From: a virus
Lineage: Duplodnaviria; Heunggongvirae; Uroviricota; Caudoviricetes
DNA length: 27,882 bases
Direction: 5' to 3' (one strand)
Virus record (IMG/VR): IMGVR_UViG_2698536647_000011
Location: 1 to 27,882 of that record
The notes beneath the pieces were generated by a model. The model saw nothing but the letters and a program-made list of their open reading frames with translations. It had not been told where the DNA came from and ran no database searches. A program made the translations under genes and the position numbers. The stretch's first letter is position 1, and each line of letters opens with the position of its first letter. Below are positions 3,463 through 22,848 of this stretch, one piece after another.

Positions 3463-5384
3463 TATTCATCTCCAGATAATGCCCGCGCGTAATCCGCCAG
3501 GGTCTTGTTATTGTTACGGCTGCCTTCTTCCTCCAGCAGGCTGGCCAGAAGTGAATCAAGATTTAGCTGCCAGCGGGATATGCTTATACGCAGCGCCGCC
3601 AGTGCATAAACAAAGCAATCGAGCGCCTCATTTCGTCGTTTTTTGCTGTCCCATACGATCTTTTTCTTTCCGTCTACCCATTTTTCCACCTGCTCTTCAG
3701 CTGTTAGTTGTTGGGCCTCTGTTAGATCGTAGATTTCTGGGTTATTCGGGAAATGAACCGCTCCCGCCAGCGGCTCGTCTCTTTGCGCCACCAGCGTGAA
3801 ACGGTTATAAATCTGCTCTTTTGCGGTGTCTGTTCCTACCTCTGTGAGGTAAACACCATTCTTGTTACGCTTGCGTGGCATGTTCGCCACTGGCTTTCCA
3901 TAAACCGACGCCCCCTTTATAGGGATCACACGAAACAGACCGTGTTTTTTTGAGCGGTTGTAGACGATGGTGGGATCAATGCCGCCAATATCCCAGCAAG
4001 TGCGGGATATAACCATTTCGAGACCGTTCTGGCGCTTATACGTCCTGTTGATCGCTTCATCAACTCGAGCGAGAGTCGACTCATCATCATGACGACCCAT
4101 AATGATAATTTTGTCGATAAGCCAGCTTTCCTCTCCCGGCCCCCATCCCCAAACACGCATTTCGTAACGGTCAAGCTGGGAGTCAATACCCGCTGTCAGA
4201 TATGCCACTCGCTCCGGCACAGACGCTTCAAAGTGCTCTTTTCGTTCCGCTAAAACTTCAGCATCGGGTCGTTCACCTATTTTCGGTTCCCACGTTTCGC
4301 CCAGGGTCGTGTTAACGAAAGTTTTTCGCTTACCCGTATCACCTTTTGTTTTTATCCAGTCCTTGACGATCTGCACCCAGGTTGTGAACGGGCTATATGC
4401 GGTCCAGATGTGGAATGTAACGCTGTCAGGAGGTTCAATTTCGGTACCGGATGAAGAAAACCAGTTAAGGCCGTCTCGTGTCCAGATACCTGTTTCATCA
4501 CAAATATACCTGGCCTCCAGAAATTCCAGCTCCTGTTGTTTAATCACACAGGCATTGTGTTCACAGAGGTAGTAAACGCTGGCAGGTTCTCCCGGAGACC
4601 ATTTGAAGCCAAATGGTGTCTCTTTATCACCGAATTTCAGATACTGCTCTTCCCCACAGTGTGGGCATGGAACATGGAACCGAAGAAAATGTTCAGACTC
4701 CTTAGCAGCTCTTTCTATCTGGCACGTACCTTTGACTTTCGGTGTAGATCCGCGAATGGATTTCGGCCATACAGAACCCTCAATACGCTTATCACCCAGA
4801 AAGGTGGGAGAACCTTCTTTCTCGATGTCATCATCGAAAGCGGCGAGCTCGTCGTAGCCAGCCACATCAACTGATTTTTCACGGTAGTTTTTTGCAGCCT
4901 TACCGCCCAGGCACCAGAAACCACGACCATTCGAGAAACGCTTCATGCTCAGCGTATTGTCCCGGTGTTTTTTACCGTACCAGGGAGCAAGCGCCAGCAA
5001 CGTCGGAATATCACGAATGGTCGGTTCTACATGAGACTTCATGAAGTTTTCAGCATCACCGTCGGTTGGTAACCATATTAGGGAGTTACGCTGTTTATGT
5101 TGGATGAAATATGCGTAAACGCCGAGCAACATTTTTGAGTAGCCGACACGAGCCGATTTAACGACATTCACCTCGCGAATATAGTCATTACCCATCGCAT
5201 TCATAATTGCACGCTGAAATGGCAGTGTTTCCCAGCGCCCTTCCTGGTAGGCAGACTCTTTCGGGAGATAATAATTCTCATCTGCCCATTCAACTGCTGT
5301 TTGCGGTTGCGGCCGGTACAGCGAACGTAACCCCGCCCGCGCAGAGTGCTGCAGCCCCTTAACCTGACTGTTCGATATATTCAC
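3462..5384 (-). CDS. A: Terminase large subunit (lambda gpA-like)
   Basis: 640 aa, lambda gpA length and position between Nu1 and W; 5' end overlaps Nu1 3' end as in lambda. Confidence 0.95.
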
Positions 5385-16119: not shown

Positions 16120-16460
16120 ACCCCTTCCCTCCCCCAAACCATCAAAATTCGCTTCATCGCCGCGCTGTTGCGGCACTCCTGGCAGATCACGTTTGCCTCT
16201 GTACGCTGCACCAGCTTCGAATTTCCCTTCGGCATAGCCGGGATTGTTTCTGGTGCGTATTTCATGCCGTAATCGGTCAGCCGATAAAGCCGCTGTCCGT
16301 GCTTGCCTTCGAACTCGATCAAGCCGTCTGCCAGCAGCGTGCTCACCGTTCCGGATATCTTTTTGGTGGTCATGCCGATCATGCTGGCAATACGAGCACT
16401 GTTCAGGCCCGGGTTGTTACGCAGGGCTGCAAGAATCTGCCCGCGGATTGTTATGGTCAT
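16116..16460 (-). CDS. Winged-helix DNA-binding protein (114 aa)
   Basis: MarR/wHTH-like pattern (...ARIASMIGMTTKKISGTVSTLLADGLIEFEGKHGQRLYRLT...). Confidence 0.5.
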   Translation of the reverse strand: MTITIRGQILAALRNNPGLNSARIASMIGMTTKKISGTVSTLLADGLIEFEGKHGQRLYRLTDYGMKYAPETIPAMPKGNSKLVQRTEANVICQECRNSAAMKRILMVWGREGV

Positions 16461-17311
16461 GCTGCCCCCTTAGAACGGTAAGAATCCCACGTGAATGACA
16501 GAGTGCACCCGCCGCCATCGCTCATGCGGTCAAGAACGCGCTCGCCGATGAATGCTGCCAGCTCTTCCCTTGTCTGGTTGCTGATCAGGATGGTCGGCTT
16601 CATACGCTCATAACGGGTGTTGATGATTTCGAACATGATCAGCTTCTCGGCCTCGCTGCCGAACTGGACGCCAACTTCGTCGATGATCAAAAGGTCCGGA
16701 GTGGTGAAGTGCGCAATCACGTCGTTCTCGCAGCGCTTCGCTGTTTTCGACCACGTTGATTTGAATTCGCGGGCAATCTTCAGCGCGGTGGTGAAAATTA
16801 CCGGGCTCTGGTGGTTCTCGATGACATAACGGGCGATCGCCAGGGCGAGGTGGTTTTTACCGGTTCCCGGCTTGCCGCACATCACCAGGCCACCACCCTG
16901 CTTCAGGCGCTCTGGCCACTTCGCGGCATACGCCTGGCAAACCCGCAGCGCGCGCTCTGACTCCTTCCCCACCGGCTGATAGCTTTCCAGCGTGCACGTT
17001 ACAAAGCGCTCAGGGATTTCGAGCTGGCGCAGCAGGCGATCGATGTTCTGCTGGCGCGTGCGGTCTTCCCACCGCTTTTTCTCGTCATACAGGAAGGTCA
17101 GCTCATCGCGAAGGCAGCCAGGACAACGAGTCGGCGGTGACGGCAGCTTGATCAGGCTGCTGGTAAGCACGCGTTTACGCTGTTCGTACTCGCCATGTTT
17201 CTCGCAAAGCACTGTTTCGAAGACGGTCTCGCAGTTAGGGAGCTGCTCTGGAGGTCTACCAAGGACTTCCAGCATTTTTTCGATAGCGTCGATTTTTTCG
17301 AGCAGTTCCAT
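16457..17311 (-). CDS. DnaC-like helicase loader (AAA+ ATPase, IstB/DnaC family)
   Basis: Walker A GKPGTGKNHLA and Walker B LLIIDEVG; ATG at 17311 with GAGGGA RBS (ORF-track start at 17329 is TTG). Confidence 0.85.
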   Translation of the reverse strand: MELLEKIDAIEKMLEVLGRPPEQLPNCETVFETVLCEKHGEYEQRKRVLTSSLIKLPSPPTRCPGCLRDELTFLYDEKKRWEDRTRQQNIDRLLRQLEIPERFVTCTLESYQPVGKESERALRVCQAYAAKWPERLKQGGGLVMCGKPGTGKNHLALAIARYVIENHQSPVIFTTALKIAREFKSTWSKTAKRCENDVIAHFTTPDLLIIDEVGVQFGSEAEKLIMFEIINTRYERMKPTILISNQTREELAAFIGERVLDRMSDGGGCTLSFTWDSYRSKGAA

Positions 17312-17313
17312 AC

Positions 17314-18183
17314 TCAGTCCCTCGCCCAAGATGGAATTTCAGTCTGGCCATAGTCCTTGCCAGCGAAGTTCTCAGATACGCGAGACTGATTGCGGGCTGG
17401 CTGCTTGATGCCTTTCGGCTCAAACAATCCCTGCCAGCCGTTCGCAATGCTCTGGTTGATGATTTCTTCAGGCTGATATCCGCTGCACTTGCAACGCTCG
17501 AGCAGGTTGATGGCCTGGGTAACCGTCTGCTGAGACTTGATCGGTTTCTTCAGGTCGCGACGATAATCGACCCATGACTTCCAGACTGAAACTGACAGCC
17601 ATTCAGGAAGGTCAACACCAGCCGGATCGAACGAAGCCGGTTTGGGGGATTTAGGGGGTTTATTAATATTGTCTTTATTGTCTTTTGTAATAGTGTCTTT
17701 TGTGTGTCCCCATTTTGGTGACAGGGTTGTCACTGTTTTGGTGACACTTTTTGTCACCACCGTAGGGACACTGTCACTACCATGGTGACAGTCACTACTA
17801 TGGTGACATTTTGGCGCAGGCTTAGTGCCCGGAATTACCCACTCACTCAGGTTTTTGTTGGGCCCGATCAGCATGCCGTCGGACACCAAAACATTCATCG
17901 CAATGAGTTCGTTTTTGGCAGCGTTAACCTTCTGGCGAGGTAGCCTGGTCAGCTCAGAAAGTTGTGAGTCTGCTATGCGGTCCATCTTTTTGTTGAACCC
18001 ATAGGTTTTGCGGCAAACAGCATGAGCTACCTTGGCCTGATTTTTGGTCAGGTTCGCGCCGATAAGCTCCTCATACAACTCGTTTGCCAGACGGGTGTAC
18101 CCATCGTCTGTATCGGCCACGCGTTGCTCCTGTATTCCCGAAACTACAGCGGGAAAGTTGAGAATTTCTGCGGTGTTTGACAT
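17314..18183 (-). CDS. O: Replication initiator protein O-like
   Basis: MSNTAEILNFP...DDGYTRLANELYEEL...LTKNQAKVAHAVCRKTYGFNKKMDRIADSQLSELT... parallels lambda O N-terminal domain; internal iteron origin. Confidence 0.85.
   Translation of the reverse strand: MSNTAEILNFPAVVSGIQEQRVADTDDGYTRLANELYEELIGANLTKNQAKVAHAVCRKTYGFNKKMDRIADSQLSELTRLPRQKVNAAKNELIAMNVLVSDGMLIGPNKNLSEWVIPGTKPAPKCHHSSDCHHGSDSVPTVVTKSVTKTVTTLSPKWGHTKDTITKDNKDNINKPPKSPKPASFDPAGVDLPEWLSVSVWKSWVDYRRDLKKPIKSQQTVTQAINLLERCKCSGYQPEEIINQSIANGWQGLFEPKGIKQPARNQSRVSENFAGKDYGQTEIPSWARD
17657..17815. repeat. Origin of replication: AT-rich tract plus at least four or five GGTGACA...TGTCAC iterons, inside the O gene
   Basis: Read directly: ...TTATTAATATTGTCTTTATTGTCTTTTGTAATAG... 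then GGTGACAGGGTTGTCAC, GGTGACACTTTTTGTCACC, GGGACACTGTCAC, GGTGACAGTCAC, GGTGACA; lambda ori likewise sits within O. Confidence 0.7.
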
Positions 18184-18220
18184 ACTTACTCCCGTTACTT
18201 GGCGTAACACAGTGTGATAA

Positions 18221-18262
18221 GGGCCTTTGAAGTTACCGCTTCAAGGGCTTTTTCTTTTCTTG
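18221..18262 (+). terminator. Strong intrinsic terminator on + strand, antisense to early-right operon; candidate 3' end of an OOP-like sRNA
   Basis: GGGCCTTTGAAG-TTACCG-CTTCAAGGGC (10-bp stem, one G-T) followed by TTTTTCTTTTCTT; sits between YdaT-like and O genes; TTGACA hexamer at 18177-18182, no clear -10. Confidence 0.5.
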
Positions 18263-18268
18263 TGCCTC

Positions 18269-18814
18269 TCATATAACCCCCAGCATCGATGTAACCATCG
18301 TCATCAGCGGTCCTACCTGCTCCGGCATGAGGCGGAACAGCGACGCTATACCCTCGCTTACCTCTTTGAGCTTCTGATGCTCTGGAGCGTCCAGCAGCAC
18401 GGCCTGTTTAGCCTCGGCACACTCTTTCATCGCAGAGGCGATCAGCGACATCGTGTCGTTCTGCGGCGCCAGACGGTTTCGGTACTCCAGCGGCAGGACC
18501 GACATGATTGCCGGGGCCAGCTGGCGAATGTTGTTGGCGGCGTATTCGGTATCGCCATCAATCCATCGAAACACTTTCTGCATCTGGCGGTGCGAGTCAG
18601 TCGGGATATCCAGACCGGTTCCGCCGGACGCCCGCCACTCTTCCACGATCAGCGCGGCGACAAATTCACGGCTTCGGCAATCAGCTGCCCAGGCGCGAAC
18701 AGCTGCGCGGATCCCATCGATGTTTAACGCCGTGGAATCAGGCTCCCGGCGATTCTGGTAAATCATCGCCGTTGGCGAAAATTTGTTACCTTGTTGATAC
18801 GCAAGTGAATGCAT
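18269..18814 (-). CDS. YdaT-like protein (Rac-type; occupies the cII position)
   Basis: 181 aa; ...QKVFRWIDGDTEY...APAIMSVLPLEYRNRL... resembles my recollection of Rac YdaT; AAGGGA RBS. Confidence 0.5.
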   Translation of the reverse strand: MHSLAYQQGNKFSPTAMIYQNRREPDSTALNIDGIRAAVRAWAADCRSREFVAALIVEEWRASGGTGLDIPTDSHRQMQKVFRWIDGDTEYAANNIRQLAPAIMSVLPLEYRNRLAPQNDTMSLIASAMKECAEAKQAVLLDAPEHQKLKEVSEGIASLFRLMPEQVGPLMTMVTSMLGVI

Positions 18815-18831: not shown

Positions 18832-19065
18832 TTAGGCCGCAGTATCACGCGGCGATGCGAATACCAGGCTTTCTTTTAGGACCGGAGCCTGGCGGTGAAA
18901 ATTCTTCGTGCCTTTCTCGATAGCAGATGCCATTTCTGGAGATGCCCGGCGATTTCCGTAGGCGATCTGGTCCAGGTAACCTGGCGTCGTGTTAGCCAAC
19001 TTTGCGAGCTGCGCCCATTCGTCGGTAGTGGCGGCCTTGCGCCAGCGGTGTAGTTCAGTGCTCAT
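18832..19065 (-). CDS. Cro-like HTH regulator (YdaS/Cro family)
   Basis: 77 aa with HTH (WAQLAKLANTTPGYLDQIAYGNRRAS); divergent from cI across operator region. Confidence 0.7.
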   Translation of the reverse strand: MSTELHRWRKAATTDEWAQLAKLANTTPGYLDQIAYGNRRASPEMASAIEKGTKNFHRQAPVLKESLVFASPRDTAA

Positions 19066-19181: not shown

Positions 19182-19859
19182 ATGGAAAATAAAGAAATCA
19201 GAAAAGCCAACCTGGAAGCGCTGTACGAGAAGCGTCAGCACGAGTCTGGAATGACCAAAGCGCAGTTTGCCGAGCTCATCGAGACAAGTCCGGCTGCGCT
19301 TAGCCAGCTACTGGGACCAAACCCTCATCGCAATATCGGCGATAAGATGGCTCGCAAAATTGAAACTGCGCTTGATCTGCCTTTTGGCTGGATGGATGTT
19401 TTACACGCCAGTGAAGAACCTTCGAACGTTGCATTTCGAGGACTGAACGAGACAAAAGGAAGTTATCCTGTAATCAGCTGGGTAAGCGCGGGGCAATGGA
19501 TGGAAGCTGTAGAACCTTATCACCGAAGAGCGATAGATCGCTGGTATGACACGACTGTTGACTGCTCAGAAGATTCATTCTGGCTGGACGTTAAAGGGGA
19601 TTCTATGACCTCCCCGGCTGGACTGAGCATACCCGAGGGAGCAGCGATACTTGTTGATCCTGAAGTCGAGCCGCGCAACGGAAAGCTGGTTGTCGCGAAG
19701 CTAGAAGGCGATAACGAAGCGACCTTTAAGAAGCTTGTAATCGATGCCGGCAGACGCTTCCTAAAGCCCCTTAACCCCGCATATCCAATGCTAGAAATTA
19801 ATGGAAACTGCAAAATCATCGGCGTTGTGGTTGATGCCAAAATACTAAACATCCCATAA
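19182..19859 (+). CDS. cI: CI-type repressor (N-terminal HTH plus C-terminal LexA-like S24 autopeptidase)
   Basis: ...VKGDSMTSPAGLSIPEGAAILVDPEVEPRNGKLVVAKLEGDNEATFKKLVIDAGRRFLKPLNPAYPM... matches lambda CI C-terminal domain; no SD before ATG, consistent with a leaderless pRM transcript. Confidence 0.9.
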   Translation: MENKEIRKANLEALYEKRQHESGMTKAQFAELIETSPAALSQLLGPNPHRNIGDKMARKIETALDLPFGWMDVLHASEEPSNVAFRGLNETKGSYPVISWVSAGQWMEAVEPYHRRAIDRWYDTTVDCSEDSFWLDVKGDSMTSPAGLSIPEGAAILVDPEVEPRNGKLVVAKLEGDNEATFKKLVIDAGRRFLKPLNPAYPMLEINGNCKIIGVVVDAKILNIP

Positions 19860-19877: not shown

Positions 19878-19903
19878 AAGCCCGCCATCGCGCGGGCTTT
19901 TTT
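19878..19903 (+). terminator. Intrinsic terminator downstream of cI
   Basis: AAGCCCGC-CATC-GCGGGCTT followed by TTTTT. Confidence 0.6.
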
Positions 19904-22708: not shown

Positions 22709-22848
22709 GCGAAAGCCCACCGAAGTGGGCCCGCCATGTCCGGCCTCACCGACCAAAGTTACACCGGAAACAACATTAAAACCAAAGTTAACCCAATGGG
22801 CGCTATCAATGGTCCGGGGATTCTAACACCCAAAAAAGAGGATCTCAC

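Follow-up and report, generated by a model that had tools for sequence, protein, structure and literature searches.

Results

Organization of the locus

Around 18.2 kb, the window analysed here (the whole 27,882-nt stretch of viral DNA) carries the region for immunity and replication of a lambdoid prophage, in which the following genes and signals were assigned:

19182-19859, + strand: LexA/S24-type repressor gene (Pfam Peptidase_S24, E = 1.9e-29, and HTH_3)
18832-19065, - strand: cro-position gene (assigned by position)
18269-18814, - strand: cII-like gene, 181 aa (Pfam YdaT_toxin, E = 2e-27), with its stop codon at 18269..18271
18193-18189, - strand: Shine-Dalgarno sequence of O, GGGAG (complement of + strand 18189-18193), which the 5' end of the RNA described below abuts
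17314-18183, - strand: O gene (Pfam Phage_rep_O, E = 3e-38), with its ATG at 18183-18181
16457-17329, - strand: DnaC/IstB-like gene (Pfam)

The early pR operon has the order cro-like, cII-like, O and P, and proteins of the YdaT family are considered functionally equivalent to lambda CII (PMC9986795, PMC5917428). An 85-nt spacer separates the cII-like stop from the O start and contains the terminator flagged in the initial annotation. Terminator scanning and folding both confirmed that this is a strong intrinsic terminator on the + strand, opposite to the flanking - strand genes, the scan placing its stem-loop at 18219-18252 (AAGGGCCTTTGAAGTTACCGCTTCAAGGGCTTTT), followed by TCTTTTCTTG.

Other signals were seen in the window. 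The top-ranked site of the terminator scan was a strong + strand terminator at 19878-19899 (AAGCCCGC-loop-GCGGGCTT, then a T-run), 19 nt past the end of the repressor gene, where the cI-like transcript probably ends. Inside the O gene, positions 17716-17815 carry repeated GGTGACA/TGTCAC units, which correspond in position to the four gp15-binding iterons annotated in phi80; presumably these repeats are the replication origin. The only Rfam match above its gathering threshold in the window was the Hfq-binding sRNA isrB (22710-22807, - strand; 38.2 bits vs. 35, E = 0.0012), which would lie antisense inside a RecE-family exonuclease gene if the window is collinear with the annotated prophage of E. 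coli W619 and positions are carried over by offset.

A probable M3-type RNA gene between the cII-like gene and O

Megablast of the region retrieved phages HK225, phi80 and HK639, and window positions 18194-18253 (+) are identical at 59 of 60 nt to the annotated M3 RNA of phi80 (aligned to L001:1543-1602), the sole mismatch (G18202 vs. C) falling in the loop of the 5' hairpin. The phi80 record JX871397 lists, at 36229-36288, a 60-nt ncRNA (PHI80_R1, “M3 RNA; homolog of lambda oop RNA”) that is antiparallel to cII and gene 15; the older phi80 record X13065 has an “M3 RNA” feature at the same place (4164-4223), and phage HK639 an annotated “M3-like RNA” at the corresponding place. In the window, as in phi80, HK225 and HK639, the RNA is placed between the cII-like gene and O on the opposite strand to both, running against the direction of the pR operon. 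A covariance model of the RNA matched the window a single time, with no match on the - strand (89.7 bits, E = 4e-20). From these comparisons, window 18158-18258 (+) is very probably the gene for a phi80-type M3 RNA, a homolog of lambda OOP, in a phi80/HK225-like lambdoid prophage, with the following predicted parts:

18158..18163, + strand: -35 element TTGAGA of a pO-type promoter (promoter scan; aligns with TTGAGT of lambda pO; inside the O codons for the conserved ILNF motif)
18178..18186, + strand: extended -10 element TG-a-CATACT (promoter scan; CAT is the complement of the O ATG and TG that of CA in O codon 2, TCA; lambda has TTTGTCATAAT there)
18194..18253, + strand: OOP-homologous small RNA of the M3 type, running for 60 nt from G18194 into the first U5 run (phi80 identity and covariance model)
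18194..18208, + strand: 5' hairpin GUUAC-UUGGC-GUAAC (folding of relatives; the phi80 mismatch is in its loop)
18207..18215, + strand: ACACAGUGU motif, conserved and largely single-stranded, forming the linker between the hairpins
18219..18258, + strand: Rho-independent terminator, 13-15 bp stem, loop UACC, U5-C-U4 tail (scan, fold and covariation)

It is the near-identity to phi80 M3 that argues for the existence of the RNA in the window. M3 is an experimentally known RNA induced by phi80, isolated as the + strand RNA from infected cells. It is one of the classical RNase P substrates other than tRNA, and later reviews state that RNase P cleaves it once (PMC5499578, PMC10731613, PMC11143913); a literature search for the function of M3 in phi80 found no study. 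Judged by its sequence, the feature is real and functional-looking, and the M3/oop RNA is already described in phi80. The OOP-like antisense sRNA of 50-80 nt that had been proposed to adjoin the cII-position gene is supported accordingly, as a 60-nt RNA whose promoter aligns with lambda pO.

Of 5426 complete E. coli genomes, 83 have a conserved copy of the element; DH5alpha is among them, with a 96%-identical copy that it owes to its phi80 fragment. The element also occurs in many phages and in many Enterobacter, Klebsiella and Citrobacter prophages. A search of the M3 RNA against Rfam returned no family at the gathering threshold (best sub-threshold match ctRNA_pGA1, 20.5 bits vs. a threshold of 45), and permissive thresholds gave for the M3 region only chance-level matches to ctRNA, trpB and miRNA families. 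The RefSeq annotation of E. coli W619, the one genome inspected, has no RNA feature at the M3 position, and for the other listed E. coli matches the feature names were those of the two flanking genes only. The value of the present identification is mainly one for annotation, i.e., a widespread RNA gene for which Rfam is without a model.

A predicted pO-type promoter across the O start codon

A promoter scan returned one sigma-70-like site in 7 kb (4.4 expected by chance), made up of TTGAGA (18158-63), a 17-nt spacer and CATACT (18181-86) with an upstream TG at 18178-79. The initial annotation had seen no convincing -10 element here, which was wrong: the TG-extended CATACT overlaps the TTGACA hexamer that it had correctly located at the start of O (18177-18182). 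The last base of CATACT, T18186, falls between the Shine-Dalgarno and the ATG of O. The predicted start lies at ~18193-18194, and the position 7 nt past CATACT, 18194, is the 5' end of M3 as annotated in phi80.

Aligned column by column, the lambda sequence TTGAGT-17-CATAAT-GACTCCT-GTT corresponds to TTGAGA-17-CATACT-TACTCCC-GTT in the window, so that the start at G18194 aligns with lambda 38675 (the OOP +1), 11 nt from the O ATG at 38686. The element across the O start is, on this alignment, a predicted pO-type promoter that matches lambda pO.

We compared this promoter across 94 related loci, which represent 38 distinct upstream contexts in which the divergent gene has at least 10 unrelated N-termini. 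The -35 element is weak and variable among relatives (3-5 of 6 positions matched), whereas CATACT or CATAAT is found at the -10 position in 34 of the 38 contexts and the upstream TG in 33, and the second codon of the divergent gene is always NCA. Coding constraints would hardly account for the retention of the extended -10 and of NCA in front of unrelated genes, which is in keeping with selection for a -10 of the extended type.

Fold of the RNA and covariation in the terminator

The predicted fold of the 60-nt RNA has a GUUAC/GUAAC hairpin at the 5' end, a ~10-nt linker with ACACAGUGU, and a terminator hairpin of 13-15 bp, at -23.0 kcal/mol (z = -3.9; none of 200 shuffles folded as well). Relatives were collected by two routes: the cII-like protein led to 26 loci in bacterial genomes, and a 14-mer taken from the conserved 5' half matched 120 loci in viral contigs (~95 of these belong to the RNA family by inspection, and the rest look like chance matches). 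A covariance-model alignment was built from 50 hits, 43 of them distinct.

Among these relatives the 5' half is nearly constant, and the terminator arms vary widely yet stay complementary. In the covariance-model alignment 12 of 13 terminator pairs have compensatory (both-sided) changes, and 99% of terminator cells are paired, vs. 79% in column shuffles and 36-50% when the partner is slid by 1-3 columns; an independent loop-anchored count agrees with this covariation. The 5' hairpin is also 99% paired in relatives, with one-sided changes only, and one subgroup can form an alternative 5' hairpin (UGUGUU/AACACA) that recruits part of ACACAGUGU. When 39 relatives were aligned with MAFFT alone, RNAalifold returned no structure, because the length differences had been placed inside the stem. 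The near-palindromic ACACAGUGU was conserved as well in relatives found by their cII-like protein rather than by RNA sequence (loci L009 and L031).

Position relative to cII and comparison with known OOP-type RNAs

The RNA of the window ends at 18253 and the stop codon of the cII-like gene occupies 18269-18271, which leaves a 15-nt gap and zero overlap with the open reading frame, so that the RNA is antisense to the intercistronic cII-O RNA only. Its complementarity to this intercistronic RNA is perfect, from 16 nt past the cII-like stop through the base next to the O Shine-Dalgarno. The same holds for every relative with a YdaT-type cII (~181 aa), in which the RNA ends 15-19 nt short of the reading frame, whereas next to a short lambda-type cII (~95-100 aa), as at loci L087 and L044, RNAs of this family reach 35-38 nt into the 3' end of the gene and have their terminator hairpin inside the coding sequence. 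Read in the frame of cII, the spacer of the window resembles a decayed copy of the C-terminus of a short cII (EKKKPLKR and a stop vs. DKAPMSGNSFEA and a stop). We infer that a YdaT-type gene was joined to a pre-existing module of oop plus replication genes just outside the terminator. This systematic loss of the cII overlap in the YdaT-type lineage is the only mildly new point about an otherwise known RNA.

The phi80 M3 RNA is like that of the window in its length of 60 nt, its site, flanked by a YdaT-type cII and by the O-like gene 15, its promoter over the start codon, its terminator and its 15-nt gap to the cII stop. The two differ in the -35 element (TTGATT in phi80 vs. TTGAGA in the window), because the O alleles differ upstream of ~18150.

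Lambda OOP, a 77-nt RNA made from the pO promoter (lambda 38675 to ~38599), shares several features with the 60-nt RNA of the window. Both run leftward, and both start 11 nt from the O start codon with a homologous +1 G followed by UU. Their promoters correspond (TTGAGT-17-CATAAT in lambda vs. TTGAGA-17-CATACT in the window, with an upstream TG in both), both end at an intrinsic terminator, the lambda loop GUUGCCGC resembling the window loop GUUACCGC, and both are antisense to the pR transcript at the cII-O junction. In contrast, the body of OOP can be aligned with the window RNA only in its first 3 nt and the terminator loop, and a search of the lambda locus (L005) with the M3 covariance model gave no match, so that homology to OOP rests on the promoter, the position of the +1, the map position and the terminator loop. 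The neighbours differ as well, a 97-aa CII in lambda vs. a 181-aa YdaT-family protein in the window.

A further difference is in the overlap itself. In lambda, OOP covers the final 55 nt of cII, and this overlap was reported to be necessary for regulation by OOP (PMC3349717), whereas the window RNA overlaps none of the cII-like reading frame. OOP-type RNAs of other lambdoid prophages, such as OOP-BTP1 of Salmonella and oop of Stx phages, were identified by their position antisense to the 3' end of cII (PMC7067206; PMC3349717 Fig. S2). They share the map position and orientation of the window RNA but overlap the 3' end of cII, unlike the M3 subtype next to a YdaT-type cII, which is purely intergenic. 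With the arrangement otherwise that of textbook OOP, the intergenic YdaT-type RNAs and their overlapping short-cII sisters offer a natural test of whether OOP-type regulation needs overlap with the open reading frame.

Discussion

Possible function of the M3-type RNA

What these sequence comparisons establish is the identity of the RNA, its position, the architecture of its promoter and terminator, and selection on its + strand structure; what the RNA does has to be argued from lambda. The pO-type promoter, with its weak -35 (TTGAGA) and TG-extended -10 (CATACT), should drive transcription from G18194 against the pR operon, and the transcript should form the small 5' hairpin, the ~10-nt single-stranded linker and the strong intrinsic terminator, to end at ~18253 as a 60-nt RNA. 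Lambda OOP acts through RNase III on the cII mRNA (PMC2327240, PMC3349717, PMC12197685). An equivalent route here would have the RNA pair with the pR transcript into an RNase III substrate, whose cleavage would separate the cII-like part from O-P and destabilise the cII-like message, and this destabilisation would in turn bias the phage toward lytic growth. Since the RNA does not overlap the reading frame, we give this RNase III and destabilisation step about an even chance: it is the cII/oop overlap that makes lambda cII regulatable (PMC3349717), so that the lambda mechanism may not transfer to the window RNA. To say that a YdaT-type M3 “downregulates cII” would be to speak by analogy with lambda, where OOP itself has at most a minor role in the elimination of CII after SOS induction (PMC2327240). 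Convergent transcription from pO may also damp the pR transcription that enters O and the origin, lambda pO activity being known to affect both pR transcription and replication (PMC3985674).

This last effect can be taken further, to a situation in which the promoter rather than the RNA is under selection: convergent pO transcription would interfere with pR transcription into O and the origin and so tune replication, and the short RNA and its terminator would merely keep pO transcription out of the immunity region. Such an explanation is compatible with the main one, and we regard it as possible, if somewhat unlikely. Inactivation of pO in lambda changed plasmid copy number and increased pR read-through, while OOP levels had little effect on replication (PMC3985674). 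Likewise, the RNA module stays by the start of the replication gene, even where it has no overlap with cII, and the extended -10 is conserved before unrelated replication-side genes. However, a mere stop signal would need no conserved 5' half, and the body of the RNA is strongly conserved (both the 5' hairpin and the ACACAGUGU linker), with a terminator kept by compensatory change.

This pattern, in which the overlap with cII has been lost while the 5' half, ACACAGUGU and the terminator fold are conserved, raises a further suggestion, which we consider doubtful enough to be offered only tentatively: the main selected role of the phi80-type OOP homolog may not be antisense silencing of cII, the alternatives being tied to the replication module. 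Candidate roles may include control of O translation (a candidate because the RNA pairs right up to the Shine-Dalgarno), pO/pR interference at the origin, and a function that the conserved single-stranded motif would have in trans or after RNase P processing.

Strand and start of the transcript

A different possibility is that the hairpin acts in the rightward mRNA of the - strand, where it could stabilise the 3' end or be a processing site downstream of the cII-like gene, or could serve as an attenuator ahead of O. The inverted repeat does lie just past the cII-like stop codon and is GC-rich, and its - strand transcript also forms a hairpin (-10.6 to -13.8 kcal/mol). Against this, the opposite strand of the 60-nt element folds no better than shuffles (-13.8 kcal/mol, z = -1.6), and the U-run is confined to the + strand, with none after the - strand hairpin. 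Moreover, the terminator stem of the relatives contains 113 G-U cells vs. 4 A-C cells, which corresponds to 99.1% pairing on the RNA (+) strand vs. 78.4% on the opposite strand, and indicates that the fold is selected on the + strand; it is also the + strand RNA that was isolated from phi80-infected cells. Together with the covariation and the single copy found by the covariance model, this strand asymmetry argues against a role in the rightward mRNA, which we consider very unlikely.

The preferred reading, a + strand M3-type RNA, leaves the choice of its start. The initial annotation took TTGACA (18177-18182), a perfect -35 consensus, as the promoter -35, which would give a shorter RNA from ~18211-18213, essentially the terminator hairpin alone. 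This we rejected as highly improbable. The positions 16-18 nt downstream read TGGCGT or GGCGTA, which are not -10-like, and the promoter scan contained no TTGACA-based site, while the 5' end of phi80 M3 and the +1 of lambda OOP both align to 18194, only 12 nt after the hexamer. TTGACA is instead composed of the spacer tail and the first bases of the -10 element, and it is not conserved in relatives, which have TTTGTCA, CTGCCA or TTTGCCA at this site and keep only the TG and the CA.

Finally, although the terminator scan was permissive (18 sites in 7 kb vs. 7.6 expected), a chance hairpin without function has next to no probability, given that conservation, covariation, strand asymmetry, the single model copy and near-identity to a known RNA already refute it.

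Other modules at the OOP position

Relatives with the same YdaT-type cII do not all carry an M3-type RNA downstream. In many Enterobacter, Yokenella and Klebsiella prophages (loci L010, L013, L014, L017-L025, L029, L030, L032 and L034), a different small module lies at the M3 position, ~20-110 nt downstream of the YdaT-type cII stop and on the opposite strand. This module, here class B, has a CATTAT or CATAAT -10 over the start of the next gene. Its 5' hairpin is GCAA...UUGC, compensatory changes can be seen in its GAAAGYCG...CGRCUUUC stem, and its U-run is poor. A search of class B against Rfam gave no match, and from its sequence it looks like a second, undescribed type of OOP-position RNA. 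In four loci from Atlantibacter and Lelliottia (L026, L027, L028 and L033), the next gene directly follows the YdaT-type cII, without a spacer or an RNA module, which suggests that an OOP-position RNA is dispensable in some lineages. Phage KO-TP1 (L007) is a hybrid, in which the M3 5' half is combined with a terminator stem resembling that of class B (GAAAGCCG...CGGCTTTC).
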